Of a stretch of DNA of 64,000 bases, positions 4,822 through 48,900 are shown in pieces; the stretch's first letter is position 1, and every line of letters begins with the position of its first letter. This DNA comes from Candidatus Omnitrophota bacterium (GTDB taxonomy: Bacteria > Omnitrophota > Gorgyraeia > Gygaellales > Profunditerraquicolaceae): NCBI GenBank assembly GCA_028716965.1, contig JAQUOV010000003.1, positions 5,302-69,301 of the forward strand. Reading direction: 5' to 3'. The position numbers and the translations under genes are program-made. The notes below the pieces were generated by a model. The model did not search any database. It was not told where the DNA came from and saw nothing but the letters and a program-made list of their open reading frames with translations.

Positions 4822-4871
4822 ATTTTCACCTCAAGTTTACAAAACAAATATTATCCAAAATATTCTCCTGT

Positions 4872-7253: not shown

Positions 7254-7308
7254 AATCCCCCCTGTTATGGCTTTGCTTCGGGGAAGGCAAACTCATTAGC
7301 CTTCCGGC

Positions 7309-8541: not shown

Positions 8542-8593
8542 AAAATGAAAATACCTCTTTTCCTGGTAGATTAAGAGAAAAATATTTACTTTA

Positions 8594-8622: not shown

Positions 8623-8676
8623 GTATTTTTAAGAAGTAATGAAAAGATTGCCCGGAAGGATATAAATTACAGGAGA

Positions 8677-12689: not shown

Positions 12690-12728
12690 CTCCCCTTTTG
12701 CTTCTGTCCTTGTAAATAAATTAAACTC

Positions 12729-15032: not shown

Positions 15033-15033
15033 C

Positions 15034-15882: not shown

Positions 15883-15889
15883 CCTAAAG

Positions 15890-18069: not shown

Positions 18070-18126
18070 ACTCCTTCCATTGATCGCGGGGGATTTTCCC
18101 CTGGGGATAGGTTATAAAAAGACGTA

Positions 18127-18143
18127 ATGTTAAAATTTAACAT
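18127..18143. promoter_or_regulatory. Perfect 17-bp palindrome ATGTTAAA-a-TTTAACAT in the 113-nt gap upstream of the ABC operon; a candidate operator.
   Basis: It has 8-nt arms around a single central base, read directly from the sequence. It overlaps a candidate -10, and a TTGACC -35 lies at 18157..18162 on the minus strand. Confidence 0.4.
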
Positions 18144-18182
18144 ATTTTCTCCCCCCGGTCAAGGTTTTTTGTTTAAATCCGG

Positions 18183-24900: not shown

Positions 24901-27900
24901 ATAACGCGCACTACCTACTATCAATCCTTTTCCCCCTAATAGATATTCAAGATTATCAACTTTTAGCCAACTTTCTCCTTTTCTATTAAGAATCAGCGGC
25001 GAGCCGGCGGATTTTTTTTCAGCCGGCCTGCTTTTTCTTTCTATTTGCGCGAATGCGCACGCGCTGCTATCAAGATCATTGTGAACGGCAGTTAAGCTAA
25101 GCTTCCATTGCTTCAATACTACGCGTAATCCCCGCATTCTCAGCCACTCTCTGGGCATACGGATAACAGCTTTGCCTTTAGCATCAAGATATTTCCCAAT
25201 AATAGAAACGCTGCGGAGCATAATCCGGAATCCGCCTTCTTCTCCCCATTTATTACAAGCCCAGCCGAATGGAGGGTCTGCAAAGATTTTATTAAATACC
25301 TCTCTCCCCAGCTTCCTTTGGACCCCCCGCCGTTCGGTTACGTCTTGCTGAAAAATCCATATTCCGCACTTAACTTCCGGCCTAATAACTTCCGGATAAT
25401 ATCTAAACATGTGGAAAAATAACCTCTGGTTATCTGAAGCATGGAAAGCGGTGCCCGGATTAATATCTAGACCTACAACTTCTGAACCGTATAACGTAAA
25501 GAGCATGCTAACATAACCCCTGCCGACGCCTAACTCAAGGACTTTATCATTAGGCCCAACCCGCAACAGATTATTAACGATATAACTGATATTCTGGGCA
25601 GAGAGCAATTTTACATCATTCTCCATTTGGATGCCTCTATCTGTATTAAAGGCAGGCGCAGGCAGGTCTCTATATAACTCCGGGAAGGTTGGTATTGTTA
25701 ATCTCTTACCGGCGGACTCTGATAATATATAGCCTCCGGGAAGATTAATAAATAATTCTGGATGCAATGATTCATACGGAATGACATGCAATGCGGAATT
25801 ATGGCACGGCATAAGGTCTTCCTGAAAACGGATACCCGGGCGATATCTTATATAATATTCTCCTAAGGGGTTCGGACCCATGCCTGAACCAATCGCGGAC
25901 AACCTATTGCCGTTGAAGGATAGCCCTTCCTCCAAATTATCTCCCAATTGTTTATTTAATAGATTAAGGAGGTTCGTGTTGCCTTGAACCTGGTGAACAG
26001 TACCTGATGGAAAAAGGCATTTCAACTCGTATCCTGCAATAGTTATCTTTCCCGTATCTATAAAATTCTGCCCGCCCTGATTACTGACAAGTTCTCCCCT
26101 TAATGAGACCATAATGCCCTTCTGCCTAAGCTCTTCTCTAGTAAAACCGATGATCCTGTCAAGCCTGGACTTTAACTCTTCCAGCCCTCTCCCGCGCGCA
26201 TTAAACATAATTCTAAACATATTCCCGGAGATATATTCAGCTGTCCCGATAAAATCCTCGGAAATGCTTTTAAGCGTTTCATGAATATGCTTTCTATTAA
26301 AATAAGCGGCGGGGCTGCCTATGTGTATATCCGCTGATACATACGAATCTGCTAAGCGGCTGTTCAATATGCGATAAAGCAATGCCAGAAGCCTTGCATT
26401 GTCCTGCCGGGTTAGGCCTGAATTAAAGATAAATCTTATGCCTCGTAGATCTTCCTCTATGCAAGCAAGCCCTCCGTAACGGCTGAAGACGTTCCTTGTT
26501 TCTTCGTAAGCACGCCCAAGAATAAAATTAGCGAAGGCCGGCCCATACCGCTGATGCATATCGCTTAATCCGCCTATACAAATAATCCCCATTACTGCGT
26601 GTTCGTCACTGCAAAAAACAGCCGTTTGCCCTCTAAGGACACCTGCCGGCAGGATTCTTTCCGACAATAAATACGTATCCTGTTTAGAACCTCGCACAAT
26701 ACCTAAACCCTTTTCATTCATATAACCTGCGATTGCCTCAACTATGCAAGGATCTGACAAATCCAAGCTATCTGTACCTGCGGGGTTAGGAAACTTTTCG
26801 AATGCACGCTTTATCAATAACCACCTGCTATACTGACGCGAAAAATCTATAATCATAGGTTCAGTTTTATCTTTACTGCCAAGCGGCGAGGCAGTATTAT
26901 AACTTACTGCTTCTGACTTTTGCATATAGGCTTTTGAACAAGCTGAACTGCCGACAGCGACTGCTAACCCCTCCAGACGATCTCTGCTTATGAAAATCTT
27001 CATATGGCAAACCAATTCTTCCCATTGAACCTCTTCGCGCAGTATTTCTAAAACATCATGCCAATAAATAATTTTCTCAAGCATCATTTTTATAAACTGT
27101 CGCGCCTCATTATCTACTCTAACTTTGCCTCCAAAAAATTCCAAAAGGGCTTTTTCATCTTCATCCTGTACACAACCCTCCCTTGTGCGTAATTCTAGAT
27201 TCCGGAAGATCCATCTGATACTCCCGCGCTCATCTAATTTTTCTAACAGCAGATCAACCATCTTCTTGACTCTTAGCATTTCGGACAAATCTTTCATAGC
27301 TGCATTTAAATTAGCCGGTTGTTTTTCTATTCTAATTTTAAAATGTTCCCTTATATATGCAAGCGAATGCTCGGTCCACATTAAATCCACCTGGATAATA
27401 CCGGATTTTAACCCAAGGCCTAAAGACGGATACTGGATATTCAGAGGATCTTCACTGCAAAAACGCGATAGCTCTTTGCGATAGTTATTCCAGATTTCAT
27501 CAAATACCTGCATAAAAGTTTTATGCGAGTCTTTCTGCTCTGGTGGTTCAGGAGGTATCACGACAGGAGATTGTTCCTCCATTTCGCGTGAGAATATATT
27601 AAGATTTACATATAGAGCTCCCAATGATTCAAGGATTGCTTCTAAAATTAGCGCCTCTGAGCCGGAAAGCGCAGTATTATGGGTTTCTCGTAATACAGCT
27701 TGCAGCCTGCTACATTCTTCCAGCAAGCTTCTTGCTCTTGTGTAATCATCCCACTGCTGTAAACCTGCGCGGGACTGCTCATCCCGGATAGCCTTAATCA
27801 GATTCCCGGTTTTTTTAGTTGCTTTGATTTCCTGCGCCGCCAACGCCTCCCTGGCGTCATCTAAAATGGCAAAAAATGCATTTACACGGGACTGAAAACG

Positions 27901-30900
27901 CATGTAATTTATAAAACTATTCATCTGCTCCTTAACTGCTTTAAGCACGCTTAGATGAAACTCCAGATCCTTGGCAACCGCAGTTATATTCTTCACAGGC
28001 ACTGTTAATATCTCCAGCCTGGCTTTGGAAAGCGGCAACTGCAGTTTCCCCTGAGCGCTTTTTAATTTATCATCGGCTTTCTGCAAATCCATTAAATAAC
28101 TTTTGGTAGTAAATTTATCGACAAATAAAAACCTGAGCCACTCATTCCGTATTAAGCTATGGATTTCTAACACTGCGCTCATCAATGGATGCCTTTTTGT
28201 CCCGCAAGCTTTAAATACCACATCTTTTAACCGTGCGCATATCTGTTCTAGCAGGCTTGCAGTCAATTTTAATTTATTATTAATATCTCTGTTCTCTTTT
28301 TTGGCATCATTAAGAATTTGACCGCAACCAGAAGATACCGGTGGAGAGGAAGCAAAAAGGATATGACCAACCCCATCTTCACATGATCTGCGAACAAGTG
28401 GATAAAAACCAATGGGATGCAAAATCGGCGAGGCGATGGTATTATTTACGGGAAAAATAGAACAGGAGAGCTGAAAAAGCACGGCACCAGAAACAAAATC
28501 AACGAATTTCCTTGCATCCCTGGGAAAGAAATTCGGTTTATAATCATATACTGAAAAGATGCTCATTCCTATACTATGCGCCCGATACTTATTCTGAATA
28601 AGCATGCAAGAATGAGGAAAAACCAAACTATCTATGCAATCTAAATTCCTGCCATTAACGCAGATAGAAAAATCATCCGTGATGAAAACGATAAAATCTA
28701 CGGAGCTATCTTTAAGGAGCAAATGATCAAAAATTAAACGCATAAAATAAAATATATCTAAATTACCAGCGTCCGAGAGATTTATAAATCCTTGGGCGAC
28801 TGCAGTTTTTAACTGCGCATTAGGGGTTAAATAATGCATCTTTGTCTTAAAAATACTAAGCTCTTGACTAGCCTTTTCATTTATCGCTCCGGCAATATCA
28901 TAGCGGTGCCGCGCAAGCATGCCAACGCTGTCTATGCTTGAAATAACAATTGCCAGATTAGCGGGTTGAGAATTCATTCCAAAGCCGGCTCGGCAATAAT
29001 TCTTCTCGGCAGGGCTACTTGTGCCATTTGAAGTTGCAAATAGTCCATTCACTAAGCCTGTTCGCCTAAGCGGCGAGGAGCTGCGTTGATCAGTGCATTT
29101 TGGATTTGTAACTATTTTCTTACTTTGACGCCTCTTACGCTCATCTCTCCACAATAATAGCAAGCTAAGAATAGGAACCAATATAAAAAGTGGGATAACA
29201 ATATAAGAAAAAGGTGTTTTCTTAAGAAAAACGCATAATCTTTCAGTACCTTTAGAAAAATCATTTAACCAAGCCAATAAACAAATCCCATCAACCATGC
29301 CTAATATAGCTCCGAGAATTATGAACCAGGCTTTAATTGACCAAAACTGATCATTCTCAACGTCAGGTTCTTTGGCTTTATCCGCCAGCGGAGATGAGGA
29401 ATCAGGATTATTACTTTTATTGGTTATTGGTTTAATCTCTGACAAATACGGTTTAAATCCATTTATTTTCTCCAGCATATTATCCAAAAGCATGCGCATA
29501 TTTTGAAGCCCGACGCGTAAACTTGGATAGGCGTAAAGCGCATCCCGCATCCGCTCCACAGAAATGAGATAATTCTGGATCCTCTCTTCCAGCCTCCCTA
29601 TTTCAGCTGATACTTTTTCTTTGGGACGCGGCCACTCTGCCCAATACCCTTCATCAACCTTACGGAAATCGATCTCCAGGGATTCAAAGTTTTCAATAAT
29701 CTTTCGTATATCTATATTGATAAGGGAATGGAGTTCGGCGATATTGTCTTCAATCTCCCTGGTTGCTTCCAGAATTCCTGCTTTTTTTTCTCCGGCATCC
29801 AAAGATCCTGATATCTCCCTCAAAAATTCTGCGCCTTTCTTCAGCACGTCAGAAAAAGAAGGGAACCCCGTGATATCCGGTTTACAATCCTGGCGAAGTA
29901 AATCAAGTAACTGGCTGACACGCTTATCAATTATGAAACTATGCGGCAAGACAATTGAGGTAACAGAGGGTAAACCATTTTTCTGCGTGATACCAATAGG
30001 AATATCTCTTACCAAAATGCCATTTAATTCCCTGCTTGTCCGGTGGTGCTCCAGATATTGCTCTACCGGTATAATTTCTATGCCCTCGTTAACTGTGTTT
30101 ATTCTTTTTTCAGCTAAAGCAGTCAAAGGAAGAGGATCAAGCCCAAGAGCAATAATAAAAAGTGGAACCTTCTGATATTTACGGTAACAATCCAGGGACA
30201 GGCGAGAGATCTCCTTTAATTCCAGCGAAATCTCCTCTAAAGAAGCTGTGCCCGCATCGCTGCCGAGGATAATGTTGATGCTTAGCGACAATCCTAAACC
30301 AAGGATTCTCTTAATAAGATCTTGTGTTACCTTGATATATTGATCTCCGGACTGTGTCTTACCCAAGTGTTCTGCCTGAGAAGGAACAAATGTTTCCACG
30401 CCCACTGTCACTATCTTTATTCCGGCTCCTGCCATTAGCTTCAGCAGCTCTTCATCCGCAGGAGAAACAACCCTAAATTGGCAAATAAACGATACTCTTT
30501 CATTTAGTGCCAGTCTTTTTATTTCATCACATAGTTTTTCTATCCATTCCCTATCCTGGATAAAGACATCATCGGCAAAATCTATCTTTCTTACCCCATG
30601 CTCAATAGCCTGCTGGCAGATTTGCGCTACCCTTTCAGGGCTAATCCTGCGTCCGCCGCTATATGGAATCTGTATTGCGCAAAAGCCGCATTTCCCCGGG
30701 CAACCACGCTGGGCATATAGAGAAACAGACTTAAATCCCGCTTTTTTAAAAATATCCCAAGGGTAATTTATAAGGCTGTCCAATTCTCCTGAAAGCGGCC
30801 GGCAATGAAAATATCGCTGAAGCCTTTCCCCGGCGTCCATGCCCCCTGCTCCCTGTTTTCTGATCAAAACCTCTCCACTTTCCTTCTTCAGGAAGATCCC

Positions 30901-33900
30901 TTCAATAGGAATGGCGATTTGCAGTTCTTCTTCGCCTTCAACTAATTTCCGCACAAAAATAGTGTTGATTATATTATCTGCCTGCGTTTCTGTAATAGGG
31001 CTTTTATAAAGATTCCCTCCTAACATTACTTTCAGGTAATCATATTGAGGATTAATAAGCTGATAAATGTTTTTAAAAGGAACAACCATTCCTTCCGGGG
31101 AATCCTTTCTGCGTAAATGTCTTAAAACCAAAGGCAAGGTTATCTCTGTTTCCCCTTCCAGGATTATGTCTACCGCAGGATGATTTATCAACTTCTCGGA
31201 ATATGGCCGAAGCCCCTGCCCCCCCAACATGACCACGGCGCAAGGATCAGTGGATTTGACTTCTATAGCAACCTGTAAAATAAAAGGTAAGGTATAATAA
31301 AGAGTGGATAGGCCGATAACGTCATATTTTTCTTTCTGAACCGCCTTTAATAACTTATCCTTATGGACAATCAGCTCGACTTCAAATCCCGTTTCTTTTG
31401 CTAACTGCAAAAGCGGCAACAAACCAGGAGAATCCTGGCTGGGAGTAAAATCATACGGCAGGTAAAATAAGAATTTTCGTAGCAAAGGATCGGAATGATT
31501 GATGCAAGAGGAGCTCCCCTGACAATATCTTTTAGCCAGCTGAGCGCAAAGATTTTGATATACGCTACCCGTTATACGGCTGGCTAATGCTGCACGCACA
31601 TGCCTTACCTGGGGATAATACATTAGTTCATTTAAATCAAATGAAGATAATGCCTTAAAAAAATTATCCATACGCTCATAATCCGTACTTGCCTGTATTT
31701 TTTGCAACAAAGCCTTAAAATATCTTTTACGCGGCTTACTCATCTTTTCAAGAATAAGCCAGCTTCTAAAATTATCGGCGATTATTTCAGGGTCGTATTG
31801 CTGAATCTCTTCAAGAATACCTCTGTAAACTTGGATCAATTCATCTATAGCCTGCCAGTATTTGCCTGCCAACTCTAAACCTCTGGCATCCAGGAACTTC
31901 TTAAGAACAGGCTTAATATCTTCTATTCGGTTGAGCTTGCTCTGTACGTAGAAATAAGACCGCGGAGAAAGCATGGCTGAGATCCAATCAGCAATGTTTA
32001 AAGCTAGAGTTTGTTCATATAAAACCGGATTACCGTAAAGCTGGAGGGGATTATGATGAGCTAAGATCATCTCAATTTCATCGTTACTTAAAGATATGCC
32101 CCATTCATCGCAAAGCACTATGCTGCCAAAAGGATGTTTTGCTTTTATCTTTTCGTAGTCATCTTCTGACAAATCAGAAGGATAATTAACCAGCGGCAAC
32201 AGCATGAATTTACCTAAATCATGCAGCAGGCCGCACCTCCTCATAGATTCAACAACTTCATCATTAAACCCCAGCAGCCGGGAAAGGATTGCGGCAAGTT
32301 CCGAAACCTGGTAAACGTGGGCAATATTTTCTTGGGAGCCGAAAGGAGGAGCCCGGGCAATAATAATTTCTTTTATCCGGGCAAGGGCTAATGAACCGGA
32401 AACCCGATTATTGATAAAACTGGCGCTTGATTCAACTGAACCAAATATAATATTAGAAACCGTTTGTCTATCTATAAGCCTGGGCTTGCCGGATAACTTA
32501 AAGCTAATTGAATTCGAGGCGGCATTGCCTAACGGTACCAGCGGAGAAGCGCCTTTCTTTTTGGTAATTTTCGAGTCCATGAATTTCCGTATAGGCGGAA
32601 CCTGCCTGTTTTCGGCTATTTCTTCAAACAAATCGAGAGCGCGCTGAAACATAATATCCGTCATTTTCTCTAAAACCAAAAATGCCCTGGATAATTCAAG
32701 TAGATAAATTTCCACTCTCTCCGCATAATTATTCCATTCCTCACGTATTTCTTCATAATCACCTGAAGAAAGCTCGATATAACCCAACAGCTTTTTATCT
32801 ATTTCATGCGGGAAAAGCCATTCATCTTCCCATCGAAAAGCATTGGGATACATCCAATCCTTTCTAGTTGTATCTGTTTTAATAAATAAAATAACCGGCA
32901 AATATCCTAAATCTCTTTCACTGGCGTTAAAAGGGTCGTCCATTTGTTTTATCCCATAGCAAACCCTGGTCTTTATATCCTGCCTTAACACCTCCATAAA
33001 TTTCTCTGCACTAATGTTCCTTACATCTTCATTTAATAACGCTACGTTTCCATAGAAATATCTTGATTCCATTACCGAAAGGAAAGTCTGGTAAGACAGA
33101 CCATGCAGGCCTATGTCAGGCAGTAATCTGATTAACCGTTGCGCCCTATTCGGGTCTTTCCAAGCATCCAGCGCAGAGGAGGCGCGATTTCTGCCATCCT
33201 TGCTGTGAAGAGCTAGCGATGGCCTGATAAGCTCTTTAACTACTTTTAGGCACACAGCATCATCATCCAGTAATCCCGGTAACTCTTGTATATAAACAGT
33301 TAAAACCATCTCCTTTGAAGCGCCCAAAGCATTTAGTTCTCTAACCATAAACAAGCGAAGGGATTCTTTGTCAAAAAATTTTCTTAGGCCGTCCAAATAA
33401 AGGGCGATAATCCCTTCTTTCGACAGCAATCCTTTTAGGTTCTGTAAAGCCAGCGTTAAAATCCTGAAATCCCGGCTACGGGCCCTATACAACCACCAGC
33501 TTTTTGGGAATAATTTATACCAGATAATAAAATACAGGCAGGCGCAGAAACAACTAATTCCAGCCAGGTCAAAAATGGCTAAGAATACAGGTGATGAGCT
33601 TCCATGGGTTGAGCCGGTAACTACATAAAGATTTCGTCGAGCAAAAAGCGAGTTATTATTAAGCTTCTCCCACTCATAAAGGCTGCTCACCCGATCCTCA
33701 ACTTCCTGGCTACAGTATTTTCTAAAACTTATTTTCTTTACATCAGAAAAAATCTCATTTTTTATCAAAAACTTCGTTACAGCGTCATCAAAAATAGAAC
33801 TCTCCTCAAATATAGACAAAATCTTGCTTAGGATCTCCTTTACCTGTTCCAGGTATTCTTCGGATAATGGCAGTGAGTAAAGATAAAGCGGCGGTTCATT

Positions 33901-36900
33901 AATCAAATATTTATTGAATTTAATTGAAAGATAAAGCGTTAGCTGGTAAATAAAGTTCGGCGAGCTGTATTGCCTGTTTATTCGCTTCAAAATTTCGCAT
34001 ATATTCGAAAGATAGTAAGCTAACGGCTGGGCCTCTAAATCTCCCCATATGCTTAAGGGGATAAAATTAAAGAAAGAACATAAATTATTATGCAACAACC
34101 ATATGAATTGGCTATCCTGCGTTAACCTTTCCTCCAAATCTGTGTCAGAGTAGTCCCTTAATTCTTTAATAAACTTGATAGTGGCATGCCTCTTTAAATT
34201 CAATCTTCTGTCTGTCCTGATATCTATTATTTGGGCATTATTTTGAACCTGAATCGGTGAAGAGCCTTTCTTCCGGATAACTGGATCCGCCACCAGCGGA
34301 GAGGCGATTATCTTATTATTGGTCTCGGATAACAACCCTGATAGCCATTTAAGATCCAGAACTTTCATCGGCCCGGTAAGGGGGAAACTAAATTCTTCGC
34401 TGGGTAGCTTTTTAAACTCAAGAACCATCATTATCAACCTGATTGTCTTTTGCAACCTTTCCAGGGCAGCTCCTATATCTTCGTCATTAAACTCAATCTT
34501 GCTTTTTGAATACAGAAGCAAATTCCCGAGTTGCGCCAATATATCTATCTCTTTGAAAATATCCCCTAAGGCTCCTGCGCGAGTAAAAGTAGTAAAAATA
34601 AGCTTTATCTTACTTATTTTGCTGTTTACGGCTGTTTCAACGCAAGCCTGGATCTCCATGGCTAACTGCAGTAACATGCCATTCAAATTATCAGGGATGC
34701 TGCCTTGGCCTATTCTATCTAATATTTCTCTACAAATGTTTATCCAGCCCTCCATAATATCTCTTCTCACAGGCACATCGGCAGGTCCCCTGATACCGTC
34801 GCATTCAAACGGTGAAGAGGCAGGCTGATCAATACGTTCAAGCTCTTGCAGCCTCTGTTCATACTTCCCGGATTGACTATAGATCCCTGTTTCAATGATA
34901 AATGTATTTACTGCAGCGGGCAGCAGTTCGCCGACAGATTGCCCATTCCCAATCATTTCTTTAATATCAGTGGATGATATTTCGGCTTCATAGCGCGGCA
35001 ACCTGAATGGATAGGAACGCATTCTTCTGTTGAATTTGATATTTCTCTGATATTCAGGAGTTTTATCAATCATTTCCCCTCTCCTGTCCATTACTAAGAA
35101 ACAGTTTTCCTTAAAAAGCTGGGTGAGTTCTTTGTTAGAATGCTCATTTAATGTTGCCTGCATAGAATCTTTTCCAACAATAAAATAGGTTTTTATTTTT
35201 TGCCCGTAAACTTCCCGATAATATCTTCTTACCCCTTCTCCAATCTGCGAATACAAACCCCTATTAGCAATGAAGATCTTATCCGGCACCAATAACCCAT
35301 TATTCTGCGCGTTGTCAAAAGCAGTTTGAAGAGTCAAAATTCTATCCTCCGGAGACATCCCATTCATTTGTTTTCTTATGTGCTTTGTCCCTATTATGAC
35401 AATAACCTCATCTAAATATTTATTTTTGGACAACTCAAGTATCCTGGCTTGTTTTATTAATTTAAAATGGGCCAGATGAAACGGATTTGCGGTGAAAGCG
35501 CATATTCCTATTCTAAGAGACCTATTTTGTTTTTCTTCGGTAGGTTTGTATTCTTTGACTGGGATTACTGCGGGTTCATTGAGAGCGTTAACCTGGCTGA
35601 CCTTTTTACGTACATCTTGCCAGGCAAGCACACAATTCTCTGCCTCCCATTTATTCTCTGATAATATTATCTTAATAAACTCATCCCAATCCTGGTTATC
35701 CAAAGCTTTGGCTGACTTAATCATATCTTCAAAGAATTTAAACCCTGCAGCATCATCTTTAATCCTTTCCATCGTGTTCCAACGCAGGAGCCAAAGGAAC
35801 TGATGCGTAAATCTTACGCGCAGCATTTCAGGAATTGCCCTGATTTCCTGTTCACTTAACGGATAGCCGAAATTCTCCGCGGCTTTTTGATAATCAAGCA
35901 CCCATTCGATAAGCTCTTGCATATTAAATTCCTGGCCGTCTTTATTCAAATCAAAGAAAAGACTGCGCACTATATCGTAAATCCTCGCTTCTTCCCTGGC
36001 TATCTCCCAGTCAAAAACCCTCCTTACGCGCTCCTTTAAGAAGCTTACATTATCAGGCCTAAAATCACCGTGTATCACTGCCCTTGGCAGTCTTTCATAT
36101 AGCCCGGCCATTACCTCTTTAATAATCCCGATCTGTTCTTTAAAATAAGGGTAATTATCCAAGAACAATTTTTCTGCCCCGTCCAATTCCTCACGGACTT
36201 TCCCGGATAATTCCTGAAACGCGGTATCTAACTTCTTTTCGCGGGCATCCACCCCTTCAAAAGTAACAATCGGGTCAGTAATCCTTTCACCCTGTATTGC
36301 TTTAAAGCGCTTATCTATGGTAAAACAGTGCAGTTTCGCCAGGAATGCTGCCGCGCTCCTCATCATTTCAGGCGTTAATTCATCATTAGAGTAAATTCTT
36401 CCCTGTTCGTCATATTTATGAACGGTGAAAATATTGTCTTCTTCCCGGTAAAGGACGGTTTCTTCTTTTGTATACATAATTTCCGGTATCTCAATAAGCT
36501 CATCCTTGCTGAATAAACAATCAAAGCATTCATTTTCCCAAATACTTCCTTTTAAATCCCATACTGATTTCTTGATCACAACTCTACCGGCATTCTTCGT
36601 TTTCGCGATTGCCACCACTGTTGCCAAACCGCGGTACTCGATTATTTCTTCGTCAATAAGCTCTAACCCGTAAGCTCGGGCAATGTCCCTTATCTCCGCG
36701 AGGGTAATTTTTAACTGCGAGTCACGGCTAATGGCGAGCTCCCTTATCTTCTTTAATTCCGTAAGGCTATCCGGCAATTGCCGGTAAATATCAGTAGCCC
36801 TTAACCCCTGGCCTTTTTGTTTTTCCGCTAAATCACCCGCATAACCATGTAAATACGCCCCTAAAACAGCAGCTTCAAAAGGAAGCAAGCCCTGGCCAAG

Positions 36901-39900
36901 CAAGCCCGCGATTATTCCTGTGAGCACGTCGCCTGTTCCGGCAGTAGCCATATAACGATTTCCTGTTGTATTGCGATACACTACACCTCGCGGATGAGCG
37001 ATAACTGTCTGGTCCAGTTCATGCCCCTTCAAAACTACGATAACCCCATACGCGCTGGCAAATGTCCGGGCTACTTCAGCCCGATTTGCCATAATATATG
37101 CCTCATTCTTACCGGTTAACCGGCTCATTTCTCCTATATGAGGCGTAATAATTATCCTCCCCCCTGCTTTTCTTAATAGTGAAGGCTTATCCTTTAAAGC
37201 AGTAAGCGCCCCGGCGTCCAAAACAATAGGAATTTTCGTATCTCTTATTAAGGTATAGACCATTTCTTTTGTTCCTTCTGTTTCTGATTCAAGGCCCGGG
37301 CCGACAGCTAAAGCATTAATTTTAAATTTCCGTATAAAATCAAGGATCTGCGCGGGTTTTTGTCCCGACAAAGTAATTACTTCATCGAATTTATTTGCAT
37401 TAAATTCCTGCCTTAAATGTTCGGGAATTGCCGCGCGCACTAAACCCGCTCCGCTTCTCACCGCGGCTTTGGTGGTAAGTTGCATTGCGCCGATATATTC
37501 ATCAGAACCGCCTACCACTAACAACCTGCCTCTTGTGCCTTTATACGCATCAGGCCTTACTTCCGGCACAAGAAACGCCGCATCTTCTTTGTGTAACCTC
37601 TTTACGTCTTTATTCAGTACCGCCTCAACAAATAAGACTATGTTCGGAAATTCTACGTTTTCTGTGATGATTTTTATATCTTTGTCCCAACGGTTAATCT
37701 GCCGAGCCGGAGTAAAGTTATCAACTATAGCCGTAAATCCTAATTCAGAAAGCACATCCACATATTCTTCAATGCTGAAATACTGCCAGCCTTCTTCTCT
37801 TTCAATATCCCAACGCGGCCCGCCCACATATAAATATTCGCAGGCAAAAAGCGGAAAATCCTCTTTTTTTATTCTCACTCTATAGCCATTTTTTGAGAGT
37901 TTTTCATAATAAATTTCCTTGGGCAGGAATTCCCGCGCAAACCCGTAGAATCTGTCTCTTGTATCCTTATTCTTAAACTGAATCACTACATATTCATTTA
38001 ATTCATCCCGCGAAACAGCTGCCCCGTCATAAAGATAAAGGTGGCCATACGGCTTCATCATCAGCTTTATATTACCCAACGCCCTGGCAACATATTTCTT
38101 GCCCAGTTCAGGCACAATCCTTTCATGTATATCTCCAGAAGGCCTGCCGTAATAAGAGTAAACTTCATGCAGCACATTGATGACCAGCACAAAATCAAAT
38201 TCACCGGTTAAATCGCTTAAATCTCCATCAATAATATCCCTGGTTATATAGCAGATATCGCCGACTACCTGTTTTGCCTCATCAATAATATCCGGGTTAA
38301 GGTCAAGCGCTACATACTCAATGTTCGGCTCGTTGGGAAATATCTCTTTAAGCAAGGCTATTTCTATTGCCTGGCCGCAGCCGATTGATAAAATCCTCAC
38401 CTTCTCACCCCGGCTTAACTTTATCCTGATAGCTTTTATGAGGCTTTCCATAATCTTTCCCTTGCCGTCTAAAACCATAAAAGATGACTTCATGCCATCC
38501 AAATAATCTTCCAGTGTCATGCCGCTGCAAACCGGCCTGCCTCCTTTAAATTCAGCAAACCTGCGGTAAATCTTGTTTTCTTTAATATAGGCGCCTATTT
38601 TGTCCGGCACATAATCGTCAAAAGGATTACCACCTTTAACACATACCCTAACCCTTGCTGAAGAAATATGCTGATAGTATTCATTAACAGGCAAACGATA
38701 TAAGCTGCCTGTATATTCTCTCAGATCCGGTTTCACTGCTAATAGATTATCAAGATCCATCCCTTCCTGATCAGCCACTACAAAGGTATAATTATCAAAT
38801 AATTCTTTTATAATATCTTTCCTGCCTTTATGCTCCCACTCAAGCATAGTGTTAAATGAGAGCATCCCGGTAATAAAATGTATATCCGCGCGAGGATATA
38901 ATCTCTTGATTTTTCTGCCGATATCAAAGTATAAAGTATTTTCGCTAAGTATTATTTCATAATCCTGCCTGTCATTTGCCCATAGTTTCAGCATCTCTTC
39001 CCGTTCATATAAGCTTGTCCCAAGCACTCTTGTTCCCCTGGGGTTGCCGGTAACCGCTAAAATAATTTTATCCAAATCATGCTCTTGTTTTGCTTTTTCC
39101 ATTACTTCAACCATGGATTTAGTCAAGGGGTTAAAAGTACTGGCAAAGACTCCTAATTTAAACCTGCTATTATTTGCCAGCGGCGAAGCGGCGATGGCGG
39201 AATGCCTGGAAATCATAAACATAGTATAGACATCTAACGCCTTAATTAGTTCTTGTATGGGGAAAGAGCTGTTAAAAGCCCCAAGGTCGGGATTCTTTTT
39301 GTCTTCCATCCATCCGTACGATCTATAACCCGGGAATGAAAACTCTACGGATGGATCAAAAATTCCCTGCGGCAGTTTCTTCTGGTTCAGCATGTGCACG
39401 TAATGTTTATCCATAAAAACAGCCATTTGTTTAGCCAACATGCCCCAATTCACTAATGCCGAGATATCCGCGTCATTTCTTAGAGTAAATACCTCATAGG
39501 CATGGCCGAATATTTTCTTTATCCTTATCGAGAGCTCCTTAATATAGCCGTTCCCTAGATTTAATTTATGCCGGCTCTTCATTCGCTTGCCTTCGTTTAA
39601 CACCCAGGCCAACAGATAGTTCCCCATAAAGTGGGCAAGCAAGATTTTCCTGCGCTGCGGGACAGGAAACCTTCGCAGGTTATTACGCAGGTAAGCCGAA
39701 TGCCTGTTCTCTAAATCAACCAATTCATCAAGGGTAAGCATTTCGGCAAAGTCTGCCGGCCCAGAAATCCTCATGTTGATAAAATTAACCCCTTTCTCCC
39801 AGGCATGCATTCTACCTGTACCCCTTCTTCTCTCTAGGGGCCGGATGATCTCCGTCATCCAAAGGAACACCCCTTCATCAAGCCTTGCCCCCTCCAAACA

Positions 39901-42900
39901 ATGAAACAAATCAGCTATGTCAGGGTGAATATACCCATACCTGGCAAGCAAAAACAAATCGTGGATATTCCTTAATGACGCCTCGCCTATTGCTTCATCA
40001 TCCGCTTCATGAAGATAGATGAAATAATCAGGAGTTTCAGTGGTATACAGCATTACGGTATAGAGGTTATCCTGAGTATCAACCGAAAATTCATTTCCAG
40101 GCTGTTCATATTCCATGATGGATTCCCTTATGTATTGCGGTAGGTCTTCCATGTCGATCCTGAATGCCCGTTTCCCGTCTAAAGGAAGCGCCCGCGGGTA
40201 ATCTCTCTTTAAAGGAACACCCTTTCCTTTTAAAATGTTTAAATGGTCAAAAAATTCACTTTCAAAGATAAGGCTTCCCGGATCTTCTCTTATCTCCTGC
40301 CATTGGCGCTTTATCCTTTTAAGAAACTTTAGGGCAATAAATTTATTCTCCCTTGTCTTTACCGCTGTTGTCCTCCCCATATTCCTAAATAAAACACTGC
40401 CTTTTAATTTCTCCAGGAGCGCTGCGCTATTACCCAATAAAGGCGGCTCCTGGGATTTAAACCGTGGACCAGGTACGCTCAACGTGCCTAGTGTCACCGG
40501 AGGAGAATCCAAAATGCACCTTTCCGCGATCCGGCTGAATGTATTAGGACTGTCGCCGTTGATGGTAAAAGCGATGCGGAATAATATAAAGGCTTTTTTT
40601 ACAAATGGATGTATCTTTAATCCTGTCCTGGATAAAACCGATAAAAATGATCCCAACCTGGCGGCCGGATAGGCATAATTGTCTTCTGATGAGCGCGCAA
40701 TCTCTTGGGTAAGTTTCTCCTGTAATCTGTTATTTATATAATTCACCGTCTCATGCAATCCCGCCTTATTTTTTATCTTTTCAGCCAAGATCTCAAAGAA
40801 AAAGCTCCTATATTGCGTGTCTCTAAAGAAAATGAATAACTGTATTAAATCATTGGAAAGATAGGTAAGGAGGCAGGATGCCTTCAAATCTGCTTCGTCT
40901 TTTAATAGGAACATAAGATTTAAAAGATAAGAATAGATGTTGTCGGGCTTAAAGCCATATTTATCCGCGCAAAATTCTACTAGCAGCTCCGGAATATTCT
41001 TGATCCTTGCAATCAAACCTCTTCTCAACAGGGATTCTATCTTCTGAATATTAAGTTGCCGCACTGACCAATCGCAATTACAAGAATTTTTAATAAACTC
41101 TTCCGGAGAGAATGAGATTTCTCTTTCAGATGCGAATCTTTCTTCAGCCCTTTCTTCAGCCCGGTATTTTAAAATAAGCTTGCTCGCTATTTTTTCTTTC
41201 GGGATTATTCCTGATTGGAATAAATAATTTGCTACGGCTGATTTACGCGCCCAGGAATGCCCCCCTGCGCGCTGGGAATCTCCTGCATCGGGGATTAAAC
41301 GGTTCAGGTTTATTTCCCTTTTTAATCTTTGCCTTTCTTCCTCTCTGATCAATCCGGCATCGTTGAGATATTTTATTGCTTCAGCGTTCCTGACCCAAAT
41401 ATAAGAATCTGCCTCGTTTAATCCGGTAATTAAATCAGATAAGGGAATTCTTGCATACATTTCTTCTCTTTTTATCAATCCGGCCTCAACAAGGTAATTT
41501 ATTGCCTCGGCGTGCTTTGTACGCTCATCAGGATTCCCGGAGTTTAAACCTGCGCTTAATTCTTCCAGGGGGATCCTCCCTTCCAGCTCTTCTTCCCGGA
41601 TCGTCCCTGCGGTAAGCAAAGAATTTACCGCCTTGGCGGTTAGGAAGCGGATATGAGGCTCTTTGTCGCTTAATCCGGAAATAAAAATATCCAAAGCTGT
41701 ATAATAAAGATACGCCTGTTGCAGGGTGGCTTCGTTCAGGAATATGTCTTTAACCCAATCCCTGAGTGCTGCGGATTCTCCCAGCGCAGAGGCGGCACCG
41801 TAACTCTTGGTTCCTAACCCTTGGCTCGTAAGCAGCCTGTTCTGTGTCAAAAACTGGGCTTTTTCATTAGGATGTTTTCTTATCCCAACTGCCTGCCAAG
41901 GTTGGACAACGATACCTTTCCCGCAGCTGTACAGAACAAAAGAAATAAAAGGAGGCTCAACTTTATTTTTTATATACTTTCTATAAGATGGCATACCCGT
42001 ACTGGGTCTACTGAAGGTCGCCCTGATGCAATGCCGGAATTCTCTTAATAAGCCGGCTTCCAATTCTGCGACTCTATATAAAATATACCGTTTAGCCGCC
42101 TTGACAATTTCTTCTTCTATTCGCGCAGGAGGAATACTGTCTAGAAATAGGTTTCTTCTTGCATGCTCAACCCATCTTTCAAAACCGGCAGTCTTCTCCA
42201 GGTGCGGATAGATTCTTTCTTCTACAATACACAACTGCTCTTCCAGCTCTTGCTCATACTGTTTATAATAAAATGAAATAGCGACTATGTTAAACAAATC
42301 ACGATATCGTTTTTCCTGCACCATTGCCCTTAAGCTACGAGTATATTTTTGCGTTCTTACGCGCGGAGTTCCATTTACCCTTTCTGTTGTTGCGTCGGGG
42401 ACTACCAGGTTTATTTTTATCCCCGGAGGGTATATATCCTTAATTTCTAAAGATAAGTTATGAAGATTGCCAAAAGTAGCCTCTTCTGCCAAATCTGCTT
42501 CTGAAACCGGTAAATTCGGGTTCTTTACCCCTCCCCACCCTAAAAGAAGTTCTATCGGTAAATTATCAGCGGCTATTGCCCTTATTCTTTCTATGATTTC
42601 TTCCCGGGACATCTCCGGATGTTTAGGACCCGTCCTATACCTTCTAGAAGTAAATATCGTATATATTTGTTCGCATGTTTTTTCTAATGCGGACACTATA
42701 GGTGATCCACCGGGAATCTGCGTAGAGGCACCAGAACCACAAACATAGGGCAGTTGAATTCCTCTGCAATATACTTTAAATATTGAGACAGGAAACTTCA
42801 CTTGACTTGACCAATAAATTCCCCACGGGATAATCCCGAATATCTTTTTTGGCTGCCACTCTATAAACTGAAACCTAACCCACTGTTTGAGCTCCAGCTC

Positions 42901-45900
42901 TACTATCCCATTATCTATCTCTTCCACTGAAGAAAATTGTATTAAAAAGGTTCCACTATCATACCGAAAACCTTTGTGCCCATCTCCGACAACCTCCCGC
43001 GCTTCTTTTATTGGAATACCTTCATTTATCTTTAACACCGTAACGTTATCAGCCGGTATATTTCTTCTATTAAGCTCATTGCGTAATATTCCAGCCAATC
43101 GGGCTAAGTCTTCCTGCGTGTTGGAAATTCTTGGAATGTAGGAAGAAACATCCACTTCTGATTTCATAGGAGGCAAGATTCTACGATAAAGATTCGCCAA
43201 TAACCCTAACGGCGAGGCGCAGGAAAATTGAGCAAAGTGCTGTTTTGTAGATTCCCATCGGCTCACGAATTCTTCAGGTAATATTGCCAATACTTTCCGC
43301 AAATATTTATTTTCCTGTAAAATATTTAAAAATGCGCTGGTTCCCGATAATACCGCTTCTTCAGTCAAACCCAACTCTCTGCCTAAATGACGTACTCTAT
43401 TTTCCGATTCTTTTGGCTCTAATATAATATAAGTTGCCGCCTCGTCAACTGCCCTTAAGAAATATGCCTGCTCTTCGATTGCTTTGCGCAGCGTCAAATT
43501 ATTAGTTAAATCCAAAAATGCCCTAATCTGCATTTCCTGTTCCGGTGTCATAGGATAATCAGTGCTACGAACCAGGAATATAATACGATTAATATCTATT
43601 TCCAGCTTCTCCAATAATCTACGGATTTCCCCACTCTTGGATAAATATTCTATGGTATTAGCGACTACCGGCTTAGAACCCTGCTTCCTCCCCGGATGAA
43701 GGTCATGTAATAATCCGGCTGCTCCCATTTCCAGGATACACTCAACAGGATACCCCTCATATTTAGAAATAAGAACAGACAGATAAGATGCTTCTAAGCT
43801 ATGGCTAAAGGTATGATAACTGTGGATAAGCCAGGTGTCTTTATCATATTCAGCTTTCACAAATGAAAATAACTCATCCAGATAACTCTGGGCTTTGCCT
43901 GACAGATTAAGGATTTCTTTTATGTTTACCCACAAATCGCTTTGTAGCGGCGAAGCGACAGTTCGCTTACTTTCCCTTGCTTCTAAACGGTTAAGGTTAA
44001 TCAACAGGTTTTCAATTTCTGCCTGCTGGCTGATATAAACTGCTCGGGCCTGCGGGTTAAGAATATTTACCTGCCCATAAGGCACCATATTCGGCAGATG
44101 CTTGCGGTAAACTGACTCGTGAATATACGGAATAAAAGGCATCCGTATTTCAGGCATTTCTTTAATCTGGCAAAACTGCTCCAAGAACCAAAACCAGTTA
44201 AAATAAAATTCGCGTATATCGTCCTCTAATTCATGCAGGCGGCGCGCTGCCCAATATGTAAAAATACCTTCTTTCCAGCTAACCATAATTAAAGGAACTA
44301 ATAGGTCTTCCGGTAGGTGCATAACAGGTAAATTCTTGCAGCGCTTAATAACCTCATCCCGCAGCCCCTTGAATAACTCAATAAGATTCTTTATCCTTCC
44401 CTCATTTTCAAATTTTACCAATACAATACCGGTAAATGCGAGCATTTGAAATTTGGCATAGTTTCCCAAATCATATATCTGGGGAATAGCTTCCCTGACT
44501 AAATAGTTGCCTAATTTCTCATGATTAAATCTGGCAAAGAATTTTTTGATCAGCTTAGAATGGTCAACTAAAAATATCCCTGATAGTTGTGCTTTAACCT
44601 GTGGATAAGACGCCCAGGCACTCATTAAAGTTATATCCCCTTTACCCCCCATAATCGGCCCAAGATATATCCTGTCCGCATTTAAGATAACAAGAGAACC
44701 GGAATCAATGGCTGAAGCAAAAACTGCCTTGTAAGCATTAAGCAATTGCAATTCAAATGTTTTAAGCGGACGTTGCAGCTTTCCCGTGAGACCAAAGGGC
44801 AAATTCTGCAAAAGGGTATTTTCATCTTCATTGTCGGCTAACAAACCTATAATTCTTAAGTCTTTTACCATTTTCCCGTTGAAACTGCGGAATTCTTCCT
44901 GATCGCTCATAAAACTTACCTGCGAATCGCCGGATAGCCTTTCCATTAAAACTGTGGCAGGATCATCAAGGTTAACCTGTTCAAACAGTTTCAACATGCT
45001 CAAGCCGTTACCTTTACCATAGCCATGCATAAAAACAACAGGGACATCCTTACGCCATAGAACCTGTTTTGTCTCCTGTAATAAATCTTTCAACAGATTC
45101 ACGCGCCCAAGGGGGTTGCCTGCCATTACAAGAATAATATCGGCGGCTGGCTCGCCATTGTTCATTTGAGCATCGCATGCTTCCTGCATCCTGTGATATT
45201 CCTCATTGCACATCTTTTGCCTGAAATCGATTCTTTTGTCAGACTGCGCCGAAGAAAACAATCTCAATCTCCTTTGCAGCATTCCCGCTTCTATTAATTT
45301 TGACTTATAGCGGAAACTGGTAAAATCCCATTCGAGGAATATCCAATGCATTACCATCGGAGAAATAGATAAAATAATCCTCCACCAGTCGCTTAACAAC
45401 CTGATATTGCCTAATTTGGGGACAAAGAGTTCATACAATAACACCGCGGACAATATGCTAAAAATCCTGGAAATCGTACTGCGGTACGGCCATCCTTTTC
45501 TCCAGCCTAAACGTGATTTCTTGGTTCCAGAAAGATAAAAATCGATATATTTCTGAAGGGATAAACGGATATCTTCGGGATTCGGGTATAATCCCGGGAT
45601 AAGCCGATTACCTAATTCCATAATAGAGCCCGTTAATTTCTTTAATTCTCTTTTATTTACAAACGCATTGAGGCTTATACCAAAAATCGATCTCATTACC
45701 GGCATTAATCCCAGAATTTCAAAAATGCTCCACGGCACAAGTATATAGCTAGGCACACCTTCAATATTGCCCATTCTATGCATAGCCCAGCTGTAGCTAA
45801 GGCTATACCCCCTTACAACTCGCAATACATCGATTTTTACCTGTAATCCCCTGCGGGTAGATTCGGGAACGGAGAAATTTTTTAAGTAAGCCTTTATTTT

Positions 45901-48900
45901 ATATACAGCCTTTAAGGCAATTTCATCCAAACGCCTAAATGCCGCCTCCCTTTCCTCCTTTACCGCATCTGTCATTTGCGTAGAGAATACATTCGCAGCA
46001 ATCAAACCATTTATCAGGGTAAGCATTTCCGAAATGCTTCTTTCATGGAGATTGGTGATATCGCTGATATGTTCTTCGTAATAATCATTTACGAGCTTAA
46101 ACGCCATATTTTCCTCTATAATATGTTGTGTTTGCAGCCTGAACATTTCTCTAATCCTGCGGCCTGTCTGCCAACGCGTATAGACGCAGGTTGCATAAGC
46201 AATAAGGATAACAATACCGAGCTTTATCTTTAACGGGATAACCCCGAAGGATTCAGCCAATACCCCGATAGCGCTATAATCTTCTACTAAATCGCTGGCT
46301 GCCCAGCTAACTAAAGGTATAAACAATAGAGAGGAAATTCCCGCTATGAAAATAATACTCCAATTCCGCCATCTGCTTTCCAGTATCCTTTCGGCTAAAC
46401 TAAGTGGCGAGGCGGCAGGGCTGTTAGGCGGGAATCTTTGCCACCTTTCCCAATACCGTAAAGGATAATAGATATTCTTCCTGATATAATCATATGGTGG
46501 CTTGCGGCGTAAGATATGCTTTTCAATGGATGACAAAAGATGCGGAGCCAATATCTGCTTAACCCTTGCTAAGTTATATTTATCGGCTCTAGCTACTTGT
46601 TCGAAAATAAAGGTATTCAAGCGGCCCATTGCGCCTTTATTTGTTCCTAATATCACTGACGTCTCAAAATCTATAACATACGCCTTTGGTGCCGAAGGAT
46701 CACCGGCCATAATATTTCTCCATTTGTGAAGAGAACCATGCGCCACTCCTTCTTTATGCAATTGCCCTACAACCCGCTCCAGATTTTCCACAAATTCAGA
46801 AAAATAACCTGAATTGCCTGCCGGATCATCCCTCGTTTCCTGAAAAACATCGGCCAGCGTTCTGGCTTCAATAAATTCAATGTCAAATACCCTGTTATTA
46901 AGCACCCTGAGTAGGCCAGGAATCCCCTCTAAGCCGCTTAATCTATTTAAAACAGCCACTTCTTTTTTGGCTAATAAAACAAAAAATGCGTATTTTCTAA
47001 TAAATTTCTCTCCATCCGCTTCATATAATTCTACCTTCGCCTTGAAATCTTCACAAATCAATCTAACTGACTGCGTATTCACCGGAGAGACGGGCTCAAG
47101 ATAAGCAGGACTGGAGGCCTTACGCTCCATGCCAAAACCCGCCACATAAGCACCCAACGGCGAGGAGGATAGGTAATCTAACGAAGAAATAACTGCAATT
47201 AGAGGCTCATTGGTCAACGAAGTATATTTGACAATCTTGGCCATATCTTCATCCCCCGAATAAGTGGCTGTTTTTCTTACCGTGGGATAGCCGGCTTTTG
47301 CCGTTAGCTTAACAAATTGTCCCGGTGAACGCCTGGTGATTAAAACAATTTTCTTACCCGGAACTTCGCCGGAATCATAGGAATATACATTCATTTCCAT
47401 CCCCTGACAACACAGTGAATCTGCAAGATTGCTGTAGAATTCCATAAGCCATATCTCGGAATAAGGAACAAACACGGTGTTTATGATAACTCCGCCATCC
47501 TGAAGCTGATTAACCAAATTACACCATGCTTTTAAAGGATCATTCAGGTATCTTAAAACAAAAAAAGCCGTTATCAAATCCATTTGTCCGGGAAGTTTTA
47601 TGCTTGTGATATCTCCCGGTATGAAATTAAACGGCTTATACTCTGAAAGATAAAGTCGCACTTCCTCCATAGGATATACTTCTTTTATTTCCTTAATTTC
47701 TCTCTCGCTTAAGTTATTACCATTCCAATTTATAACGTCAGCTCCGTAACAAACCAAATTATCCCCGAAAGAACTCTTGGCTCCGATCAAAGCCCTGCCT
47801 ATGCCGCATCCGGCATCCAGCCATCTGACAAAGCGCCTTGAAGTTTCCCTGTTTAAATATTCATTTAAACAAAAATCAGCGCCTGCCTCTTTTAATATTA
47901 AATCGTAAGTTTCTAAATCCCTGGATTTTCTTGTGCGCTGGTGGATTAGGCCCTGTTCAAATATGAGGGCTCCTTCCGGGGTCGATGCTGCAAAGAATTC
48001 CAGCAAAATTCTGATGGTAAGAAATAGTTGTAACGGGGAATAAAGGATGGATTGATCAAGATAGAGAGTTTTCTGGAACGCGCCAAAGAATAGATCAAAC
48101 GGCCCTGCCCTAATTCCTCCGGCATCAGCTAAGAATTCATTTAATTTAAACACCAATTCATGTCTGCCTGTTTCATTTAATGATGATTTCAGCGGCAGAT
48201 ATATGTCACGTTTCAATATCACCTTTTCTGAGCCGGTTAAAGGCCGTAACAATGCCGCGTGCGTTTCTATTTCGTAGCTAATTTCTTTCTCTGTCAGGGG
48301 CCATCTTGTTTTTGAACGCGCCGGGGCAAAAGGAGAACAAGTCAAAGCTGAACTAGCGCTTCTTGGTTTCTTTTCTCTCAAATTCCCGGTACCATTGTTA
48401 GAAAAGTCTTTATCGGTAACTTTATACAGGAAAATGAATGACGGGATGCTGGCTAATGCGGCTACCAATACTATGCCTTGCAAAGAAAAATTCGCGCTCA
48501 CCAGGATAAACGACAGGATGGTGCCAAAGATCCCCGCCGCTGCATCTATTGTCTTGCCTAAACCAAAAGCAGCTCCGGCTTCTCCTTCCGATAGCGAAGC
48601 CATATACGCCTTCTGCGTTGTAGAGCGCATGCCCAGACCGGTTTGGTTGATTATTTTTGAAATGACGATCATCAGGAAAATTCCCGGGAAAAAGGCAAAA
48701 ATGAATGTCGCCACCGAATAAAAAAAGTATCCTGTACATATGAATGCTTTTTTGGAAGCGAAACGCCCTGAAACATATCCGAAGATTAACTGTGAACAGG
48801 AACCGATAAGGATAGTTATGGCGGTAAAAATACCCATCTTCATTGCCGCCGCGCTGAAATTATGCATAATAAAAGGTATGACTGGAGAGACGATCTCCTG

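Follow-up and report, generated by a model that had tools for sequence, protein, structure and literature searches.

A portable five-domain cassette with a predicted NAD(P)H-hydrate dehydratase inside a giant open reading frame of an Omnitrophota bacterium

A five-domain block and its enzymes

The stretch of DNA analysed here (the window) comprises 64,000 nucleotides of contig JAQUOV010000003.1 from a Candidatus Omnitrophota bacterium. Its minus strand carries a giant open reading frame (ORF; 18892..63948, listed as 15,018 amino acids) in which a first-pass annotation had described a block of about 1,430 amino acids related to nicotinamide adenine dinucleotide (NAD). The block (34879-39165) is in frame within this single ORF: position 39165 is the first base of codon 8262, position 34879 is the last base of codon 9690, and the translation of giant residues 8262-9690 is 1,429 amino acids long. 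The five domains that had been proposed were all recovered in the proposed order, namely a first NadD-like domain, a class I S-adenosylmethionine (SAM) methyltransferase, a YjeF_C dehydratase, an APH-type kinase and a second NadD-like domain. Each call has Pfam or NCBIfam matches and the order recurs in homologues at 32-51% identity. The NadD-like, dehydratase and kinase matches lie well outside what chance would give. The block is bracketed by two copies of a short junction motif. The upstream copy, AASPL (39178..39192, minus strand; giant residues 8253-8257), is followed by six residues (8258-8263) before the first NadD-like domain starts at residue 8264. The downstream copy, ASSPF (34807..34821, minus strand; giant residues 9710-9714), closes the unit, so the true span of the cassette is about 34807-39192, or about 1,460 amino acids.

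The central domain (36769..37596, minus strand; block residues 524-799) had been called a high-confidence YjeF_C domain, and it is a full member of the Nnr family. PF01256 matches block residues 548-798 with 182.8 bits (E 1e-53; cut-off 27) and the NAD(P)H-hydrate dehydratase model TIGR00196 gives 193.4 bits, above its cut-off of 129.85. The domain is 38-49% (mostly about 45%) identical to canonical bifunctional Nnr proteins. Of 48 columns with at least 85% conservation among 143 canonical sequences, it retains 47. The family motifs tested were GxGD, TPHxGE, LKG, N..GN and H..D, and those kept include the first three. The sole systematic change is DAD to DAG. This was ruled out as a sign of altered function, as the validated YxkO of B. 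subtilis has the same residues (LDAGAL), and the PDB entries for YxkO (3RPH, 1KYH) are named ADP/ATP-dependent NAD(P)H-hydrate dehydratase. Judged by its sequence, the domain is a bona fide and complete dehydratase of hydrated NAD(P)H (NAD(P)HX), of the YxkO type. It differs from Nnr and YxkO in its partners: these are two NadD-like domains, a methyltransferase and an APH kinase, and a YjeF_N epimerase is missing. In a published survey 97% of prokaryotic dehydratases were fused to YjeF_N, and 168 of about 1,600 genomes had a dehydratase without the epimerase (PMC5938422). Fusion of the dehydratase to NadD-like, methyltransferase or APH domains is unmentioned in that paper.

Both terminal domains belong to the nucleotidyltransferase superfamily, with CTP_transf_like matching two stretches of the block (E 5e-14, Pfam), and the two are paralogous Rossmann domains (22.6% identity, E 8e-12, with cross-matches between them). 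NadD is the nearest family for each. The first domain (38563..39159, minus strand; block residues 3-201) matches the NadD model NF000840 from end to end with 70.6 bits (E 1e-19; cut-off 150) and a second NadD model with 59.8 bits (cut-off 112.45). The second (34879..35520, minus strand; block residues 1216-1429) matches TIGR00482 from end to end with 60.8 bits (E 2e-16; cut-off 112.45), and scores 52.1 bits where the cut-off is 150. The scores are thus about half of the equivalog cut-offs. With a profile of the first domain, ten NadD structures came first (E 2e-18 to 1e-10), followed by NMNAT1-3 and after these by PPAT; a profile of the second had NadD at the top (7e-7), with PPAT and NMNAT weaker. 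Reclassification as TagD-type cytidylyltransferases had been named beforehand as the outcome that would overturn the NAD link. Neither profile matched a TagD, CCT or ECT structure at E<=1 and the NCBIfam models rank NadD first, so that class was rejected for both domains.

The two NadD-like domains differ in which features of the family they keep. As had been noted, the first reads FNPLTKSM, without histidine, and the second reads ANPFHLAH. In the first domain T-K-S-M (39112-39123) replaces HxGH, and the form FNPxTx(S/A/P)(M/I) stands at this position in all 13 sequences that span the region. The Asp of GxD is also lost, and a Trp is invariant ten residues past the glycine, with the spacing of W117 in the E. 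coli NadD sequence, which we take to be the Trp that stacks on the pyridine ring. The domain keeps SSxxxR, relaxed to (S/T/A)S(A/S)xxR across copies as compared with ISSTxIR. Because T..M replaces H..H and the GxD Asp is missing, the first domain would be a pseudoenzyme, a conserved one that we infer still binds pyridine nucleotide. In contrast, the second domain has HLAH (35467-35478), and HxxH, TKH, MSxEDR, GxD, VMDRxG and (I/L)SS(T/S)xI(R/K) are conserved in 10 of 10 copies, whereas the stacking Trp is absent. All the catalytic motifs of the nucleotidyltransferase superfamily are thereby retained, and the domain looks active.

The kinase domain (35641..36678, minus strand) is a small-molecule kinase resembling APH and type II homoserine kinases. 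PF01636 matches block residues 907-1097 with 47.8 bits (E 2e-12; cut-off 23.2). The motifs (I/V)IHGDxxxxN and D(W/L)(D/E)xAR are conserved in 13 sequences (HGDFRPDN and DWE in the window copy) and provide the HxDxxxxN catalytic loop and the metal-binding Asp of the family, and the presumed beta3 lysine column holds K or R, with one E. The nearest sequence families are the type II homoserine kinases, at 31-39 bits and far below their cut-offs, and a sequence search of the PDB gave a marginal match to homoserine kinase 2PPQ (E 0.002). An AlphaFold2 model had a confidence (pLDDT) of 57; its Foldseek matches were all APH-superfamily small-molecule kinases (NahK, YtaA/CotS, APH(9), amicoumacin kinase, YihE, macrolide kinases and ethanolamine kinase) at TM-scores of 0.2-0.36. 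Because the model is poor, this result supports the APH fold class only.

The methyltransferase (37597..38550, minus strand) is supported by weak family matches and a modelled fold. Pfam gives a cluster of weak class I matches at block residues 241-382, and a PDB sequence search found a marginal match to motif I of LCMT1 (E 0.09). The class I traits are present: the fold is Rossmann-like, motif I is rich in Gly and beta2 is followed by an acidic residue. Of the 326 residues in the model, about 195 can be superposed on known natural-product and small-molecule methyltransferases; the others are specific to this family. It is also the most conserved part of the cassette, with the motifs SIGCGQ, NPDIIDEAKQ, RFKNKDT and REE(S/G)WQY. 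The catalytic and SAM-binding motifs are kept, and both the kinase and the methyltransferase are apparently active.

The cassette as a portable unit

A search of 5.8 billion clustered proteins returned four homologues of 1,336-1,592 amino acids, each 46-51% identical over 84-100% of the block, and the source label is Candidatus Omnitrophica for all three that are named. On the contigs of these four homologues the cassette is a separate gene. The neighbours of one (P0003) are ordinary housekeeping genes and another (P0001) is the fourth in a row of five consecutive large genes. When the whole giant protein was compared with these loci by tblastn, only residues 8246/8258 to 9704/9706 matched. 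The cassette thus exists as a gene of its own in other Omnitrophota, which suggests that these giant proteins are assembled from portable multi-enzyme units.

An exhaustive HMMER search of 1.84 billion representative proteins, using block residues 1-1200 as the query, found the multi-domain architecture in only seven entries. Two of these are embedded in larger proteins: P0006 (4,250 amino acids, cassette at 1922-3099) and P0009 (cassette from residue 1419). Below the seven, the matches are ordinary Nnr proteins at about 190 bits. No sub-architecture scored above the canonical Nnr matches in this set, although one without the dehydratase could be missed.

We also scanned one genome per species from 185,579 species with the methyltransferase alignment as the query. 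Thirteen loci were found: 11 are labelled Omnitrophota or Omnitrophica, and the labels of the other two are 'uncultured Planctomycetales' and 'uncultured bacterium'. Among the proteins and genomes searched, the cassette architecture is therefore seen only in Omnitrophota-type metagenome-assembled genomes. It is a stand-alone gene of 1,352-1,600 amino acids at five loci and embedded at seven, in ORFs of at least 1,955, 1,973, 2,842, 4,163, 4,412 and 6,983 amino acids (the last twice), mostly open at the sequence ends; the thirteenth (L017) is cut by a contig end. The suggestion that the same order should be sought in other giant ORFs was borne out: all five domains are present in order in L007, L008, L013 and L015, and L009 reaches the second NadD-like domain, where its contig ends. 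Apart from one weak segment in L008, the cassette alone matches between the embedded loci and the giant ORF of the window.

The boundaries of the cassette are constant across loci (giant residues 8250-8267 and 9704-9718, agreeing within about 10 amino acids), and lineages that are only 32-34% identical still have the same domain order and the same short linkers. The block that had been described as contiguous is therefore a real unit, conserved in both its stand-alone and its embedded form. The second NadD-like domain is missing from L006, L010/P0004, L016 and P0005/6. Because of this, the constant core consists of the pseudo-NadD, methyltransferase, Nnr and APH domains, and the second NadD-like domain is accessory.

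Of the whole giant ORF, the cassette alone is clearly homologous to the remaining giant ORFs and stand-alone genes that were compared. This homology, a length of about 1,460 amino acids and the natural stand-alone versions make it a tractable entry point for biochemistry.

Two lineages show further variation. The most divergent cassettes (P0005, P0006 and L016; 32-34% identity) have junctions of the form SSS(L/I) as well as SSP(I/V). In this lineage the cassette ends in KVSSPIQKE right after the kinase, exactly where the second NadD-like domain starts in the five-domain form, which suggests that this domain is added or lost as a separate unit. The orthologue P0003 (in L004) has an in-frame stop (9962-9964) inside the first NadD-like domain, directly after FNPLTATMEQIM. 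As a result the annotated gene starts downstream and a 95-amino-acid 'gene' carries the leader described below. The stop could reflect a pseudogenised N-terminus, a sequencing error or recoding.

Junction motifs, leaders and the giant host ORF

The junction motif is not confined to the cassette. The pattern [AGST][AGS]SP[LIVFM] occurs 25 times in the giant ORF, compared with 0.6 +/- 0.9 times in shuffled sequences, at residues 524, 1651, 1900, 2414, 3324, 4469, 5594, 5845, 7080, 8253, 9710, 9895, 10117, 10466, 11517, 11623, 12352, 12981, 13370, 13591, 13768, 13917, 14175, 14188 and 14953. Comparison of coordinates places it outside every Pfam-detected domain. Near the C-terminus it separates single domains, and the cassette, at 1,457 amino acids, is the longest stretch of the ORF that is free of it. 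The codons of the motif vary, which points to selection at the protein level and rules out a DNA-level repeat as its source. The same bracket surrounds the cassette in L007, L008, L009, L013, L015, L016, P0007 and P0009. In four other giant fragments the motif is enriched 20- to 100-fold (L007, 8 against 0.34 expected; L008, 9 against 0.34; L015, 6 against 0.19; L016, 3 against 0.03). The cassette boundaries coincide with this motif, which punctuates these giant ORFs. We consider it a candidate processing site or hinge. The points at which giant proteins might be cleaved were stated to be unknown by West-Roberts et al. (bioRxiv 10.1101/2023.11.21.568195).

In the stand-alone genes both brackets are replaced. 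Upstream there is a signal-peptide-like leader followed by (L/T)(S/A)P(Q/H/S/K), and downstream the protein ends in (I/V)(E/G)Q(A/S)I-stop. All stand-alone proteins with an intact N-terminus (P0001, P0002 and P0004, as well as L004 when read through its stop) have a positive N-terminus, a hydrophobic stretch and an AxA-like site. The leader and tail are also found on other proteins. They are common to all five tandem genes of L001 (1656-18447), and neighbours of the cassette in L011 (1897-4818) and L012 (1749-3464) have the same leader, with tails IERSI and IARAI. This looks like an undescribed pair of sorting or docking signals, to judge from the sequences. The EQAI and LSPQ motifs are absent from the interior of the giant ORF. 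We considered whether the giant ORF might be a fused version of the L001 five-gene cluster, and ruled this out because tblastn shows that the cassette alone is shared; the other leader- and IEQAI-bearing proteins of L001, L011 and L012 had no match in the giant fragments compared.

Several smaller observations concern these signals. The leader of the unrelated large proteins is nearly identical, with basic residues, then a hydrophobic 'TALAL(I/V)WA' or 'LIQxF', then (L/T)(S/A)PQ. A Peptidase_C39 gene (L001 20955-21680) adjoins the five-gene cluster. Within the giant ORF, a transmembrane-like helix lies 5-40 residues beyond some motifs (residues 10117-10142, 5845-5883, 11517-11561 and 1651-1708), for example GSSSPVFLAIFDLAGISCFCACLYFII. 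Such helices soon after motifs make it seem that some units start with their own membrane anchor, like the stand-alone proteins. A hydropathy scan of the whole ORF found 14 transmembrane-like segments, none of them between residues 5919 and 10124.

The giant ORF is at least 15,018 amino acids long. The 52 bases upstream of the listed TTG (63948), which run to the window edge (63949-64000), contain no in-frame stop on translation. The ORF is thus probably longer than listed and continues past the window, and the TTG is probably not its real start. Domain scans show the rest of the ORF to be an enzyme mosaic, with HAD, aldose 1-epimerase, trypsin-like peptidase, GH77, PRK/uridine-kinase-like, HD, B12-binding plus radical SAM and response-regulator receiver domains and several methyltransferases. 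Downstream on the same strand (640-18905) are genes for PilZ, a sugar ABC transporter (a binding protein and two permeases), GH2-like, TPR and ROK proteins; the PilZ gene (18183-18905, minus strand) shares 14 bases with the end of the giant ORF.

This arrangement fits the Archaeovorin-type or 'multi-enzyme metabolic cluster' giants of Omnitrophota, whose genes are followed downstream by genes for polysaccharide import (bioRxiv 10.1101/2023.11.21.568195; 10.64898/2026.06.07.730766). Like them, the host ORF exceeds 15,000 amino acids, combines methyltransferases, a glycoside hydrolase, a peptidase, HAD, HD and radical-SAM domains with transmembrane helices, and lies upstream of sugar-import genes. 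The Archaeovorin traits of a glycosyl transferase and a NUDIX domain were absent at E<=1e-3 from the giant ORF, which is cut by the window.

Possible functions of the cassette

Tentatively, we read the block as a self-contained cassette of several enzymes, about 1,460 amino acids long and one 'bead' in an Archaeovorin-like giant, that serves as a maintenance module for pyridine nucleotides (NAD(P)(H)); we hold this to be plausible, if somewhat short of an even chance. ADP/ATP-dependent repair of hydrated NAD(P)H by the cassette is the well-supported part of the prediction. The Nnr domain would restore hydrated NAD(P)H at the expense of ADP or ATP, so that the reduced cofactor is kept usable. 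The first NadD-like domain may act as a non-catalytic domain that binds or hands over pyridine nucleotide. Where it is present, the second might adenylylate a mononucleotide, perhaps one made from a nucleoside by the APH-like kinase, a logic like that of NadR built from other folds. Kinase and second NadD-like domain would then form an optional two-step salvage route beside the repair by Nnr, and the methyltransferase would act on some small molecule.

NadR is a fusion of an NMN adenylyltransferase with a ribosylnicotinamide kinase that carries out a two-step salvage. The cassette resembles it in having a kinase and an HxGH-type adenylyltransferase on one polypeptide for a possible route from nucleoside to dinucleotide. 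It differs in that the NadR kinase has a P-loop fold and the cassette kinase is of the APH type, and in that NadR lacks an Nnr domain, a methyltransferase and a pseudo-NadD; the NadR model matches the block only at E 0.09. HldE (RfaE) likewise combines on one chain a ribokinase-superfamily domain and a cytidylyltransferase-like domain of PF01467, as the cassette combines a ribokinase-fold and a transferase domain. The ribokinase-fold domain of the cassette is, however, Nnr and not a PfkB sugar kinase, and its transferase is NadD-like; HldE-type structures were matched by neither NadD-like profile.

Several points weigh against a role in pyridine-nucleotide maintenance. Neither NadD-like domain reaches the NadD equivalog cut-offs. 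The missing Trp implies that the acceptor of the second may not be nicotinic acid mononucleotide or nicotinamide mononucleotide, and this domain is absent from several cassettes. Given these two features, dinucleotide synthesis cannot be the core activity that is conserved. No link to NAD was detected for the kinase or the methyltransferase, whose nearest structures are generic: the sugar-1-kinase NahK, CotS/YtaA and antibiotic kinases for the former (from a low-confidence model), natural-product methyltransferases for the latter. An NAD(P)HX epimerase, an NAD synthetase and an NAD kinase are all missing from the cassette. Additionally, a signal-peptide-like leader on the stand-alone proteins is awkward because the enzymes need ATP, ADP and SAM, unless they work in the cytoplasm of another cell. 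Of the dedicated NAD transaction proposed in the first-pass annotation, the parts that hold are thus the bona fide Nnr domain and the kinship of the NadD-like domains to NadD; the unmet cut-offs, and a methyltransferase and kinase without a detectable NAD link, speak against the remainder.

The cassette could instead be a co-inherited bundle of independent housekeeping or metabolite-repair enzymes that share no pathway, shuffled as a unit between giant genes. Its conservation would then reflect this shuffling and not any cooperation of the five activities. The rest of the giant ORF, where HAD, aldose epimerase, protease, GH77, uridine-kinase-like, HD, radical SAM and methyltransferase domains stand side by side without evident relation, gives the same mosaic picture as the published giants of Omnitrophota (10.1101/2023.11.21.568195; 10.64898/2026.06.07.730766), and the dispensable second NadD-like domain and the lack of a demonstrable common substrate for kinase and methyltransferase are also as expected of a bundle. 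Yet the order and short linkers have stayed unchanged at 32-34% identity, and the conservation of a pseudo-NadD is hard to understand if each enzyme works on its own. The junction motif, which separates single domains elsewhere in the ORF, never falls inside the 1,457-amino-acid segment, and the 1.84e9 representatives held no sub-architecture above canonical Nnr (with the above limit for one lacking the dehydratase). We regard a mere bundle as unlikely. A kinase, nucleotidyltransferase and methyltransferase could also form a route to a nucleotide-activated sugar or alcohol for the cell surface, on the model of AmgK/MurU, HldE or choline-kinase/CCT/PMT, the likeness to NAD enzymes being a family-level echo. 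The APH model best matches the sugar anomeric kinase NahK, with ethanolamine kinase lower, and the methyltransferase has matches among NDP-aminosugar N-methyltransferases (TylM1, DesVI and CalS10) as well as phosphoethanolamine methyltransferases. PF01467 also contains CCT, ECT, TagD and the HldE adenylyltransferase, the pyridine-stacking Trp is missing from the second NadD-like domain, and the rest of the locus is geared to sugars (GH77 and aldose epimerase in the giant ORF; sugar ABC transporter, GH2-like and ROK proteins downstream). These structural likenesses come with low TM-scores (0.2-0.45) and a kinase model of pLDDT 57, however, and both NadD-like profiles match NadD, NMNAT and PPAT with no TagD, CCT or ECT at E<=1. 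The domain with the ribokinase fold belongs fully to Nnr and is no sugar kinase, and it is the nucleotidyltransferase step that is dispensable while the dead copy is always kept. An activated-sugar route seems improbable to us.

That the block might act as an effector had been raised at the outset, and in its specific form this would be an exported protein that modifies NAD or makes an NAD-like molecule, by phosphorylating or methylating a bound dinucleotide, or both, and acts on the cofactor pool of prey or host. With the pyridine-binding features that it retains, the pseudo-NadD could present a dinucleotide to the neighbouring methyltransferase and kinase. Omnitrophota are reported to be predatory or parasitic, and the required cofactors exist only inside cytoplasm. 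The signal-peptide-like N-termini, present on all stand-alone orthologues with an intact N-terminus, lend the idea indirect support only. The leader may serve as a membrane anchor. At the window locus the cassette has no secretion or translocation machinery linked to it, and it contains none of the known NAD-modifying toxin folds (ART, TIR, SIR2 and RES). The idea is purely inferential, and PADLOC finds nothing to support it: a link to defence systems was rejected as its matches were noise only (E about 0.006-0.009). We judge an NAD-modifying effector to be a rather remote prospect.

A bolder reading concerns the giant proteins as a whole. On this reading the giants would be strings of autonomous units split by [AGS][AS]-S-P-[LIVF], units that elsewhere exist as single proteins with a common leader and an IEQAI-COOH tail as possible sorting or docking signals, and the cassette would be an exported, self-sufficient NAD-handling machine delivered to the surface or to prey to repair, make or modify pyridine nucleotides. 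We put this forward as a speculative and rather doubtful proposal. If it were true, the packaging would reveal how Omnitrophota giants are built and perhaps processed.

The superfamily of each domain and the giant-protein class of the host are already known. The architecture, the conserved pseudo-NadD, the restriction to Omnitrophota-type genomes, the dual existence as stand-alone protein and bead, and the framing by junction motif, leader and tail are described neither in the two giant-gene papers nor in PMC5938422; NAD enzymes, adenylyltransferases, portable cassettes and junction motifs are unmentioned in the main text of 10.1101/2023.11.21.568195 and 10.64898/2026.06.07.730766. This class of giant proteins has been described as poorly conserved and functionally opaque, and the cassette gives a way in. 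A pseudo-NadD beside a bona fide dehydratase suggests unrecognised pyridine-nucleotide handling in ultra-small predatory or parasitic bacteria.

Finally, four further regions of the giant ORF gave domain matches: a weak RelA/SpoT-synthetase-like match (residues 2168-2255), ACT plus HD_4 domains resembling an alarmone hydrolase (4585-4857), an MFS_1 transporter-like membrane domain (5007-5193) and a DIT1/PvcA-like stretch resembling isonitrile synthases (7149-7268).

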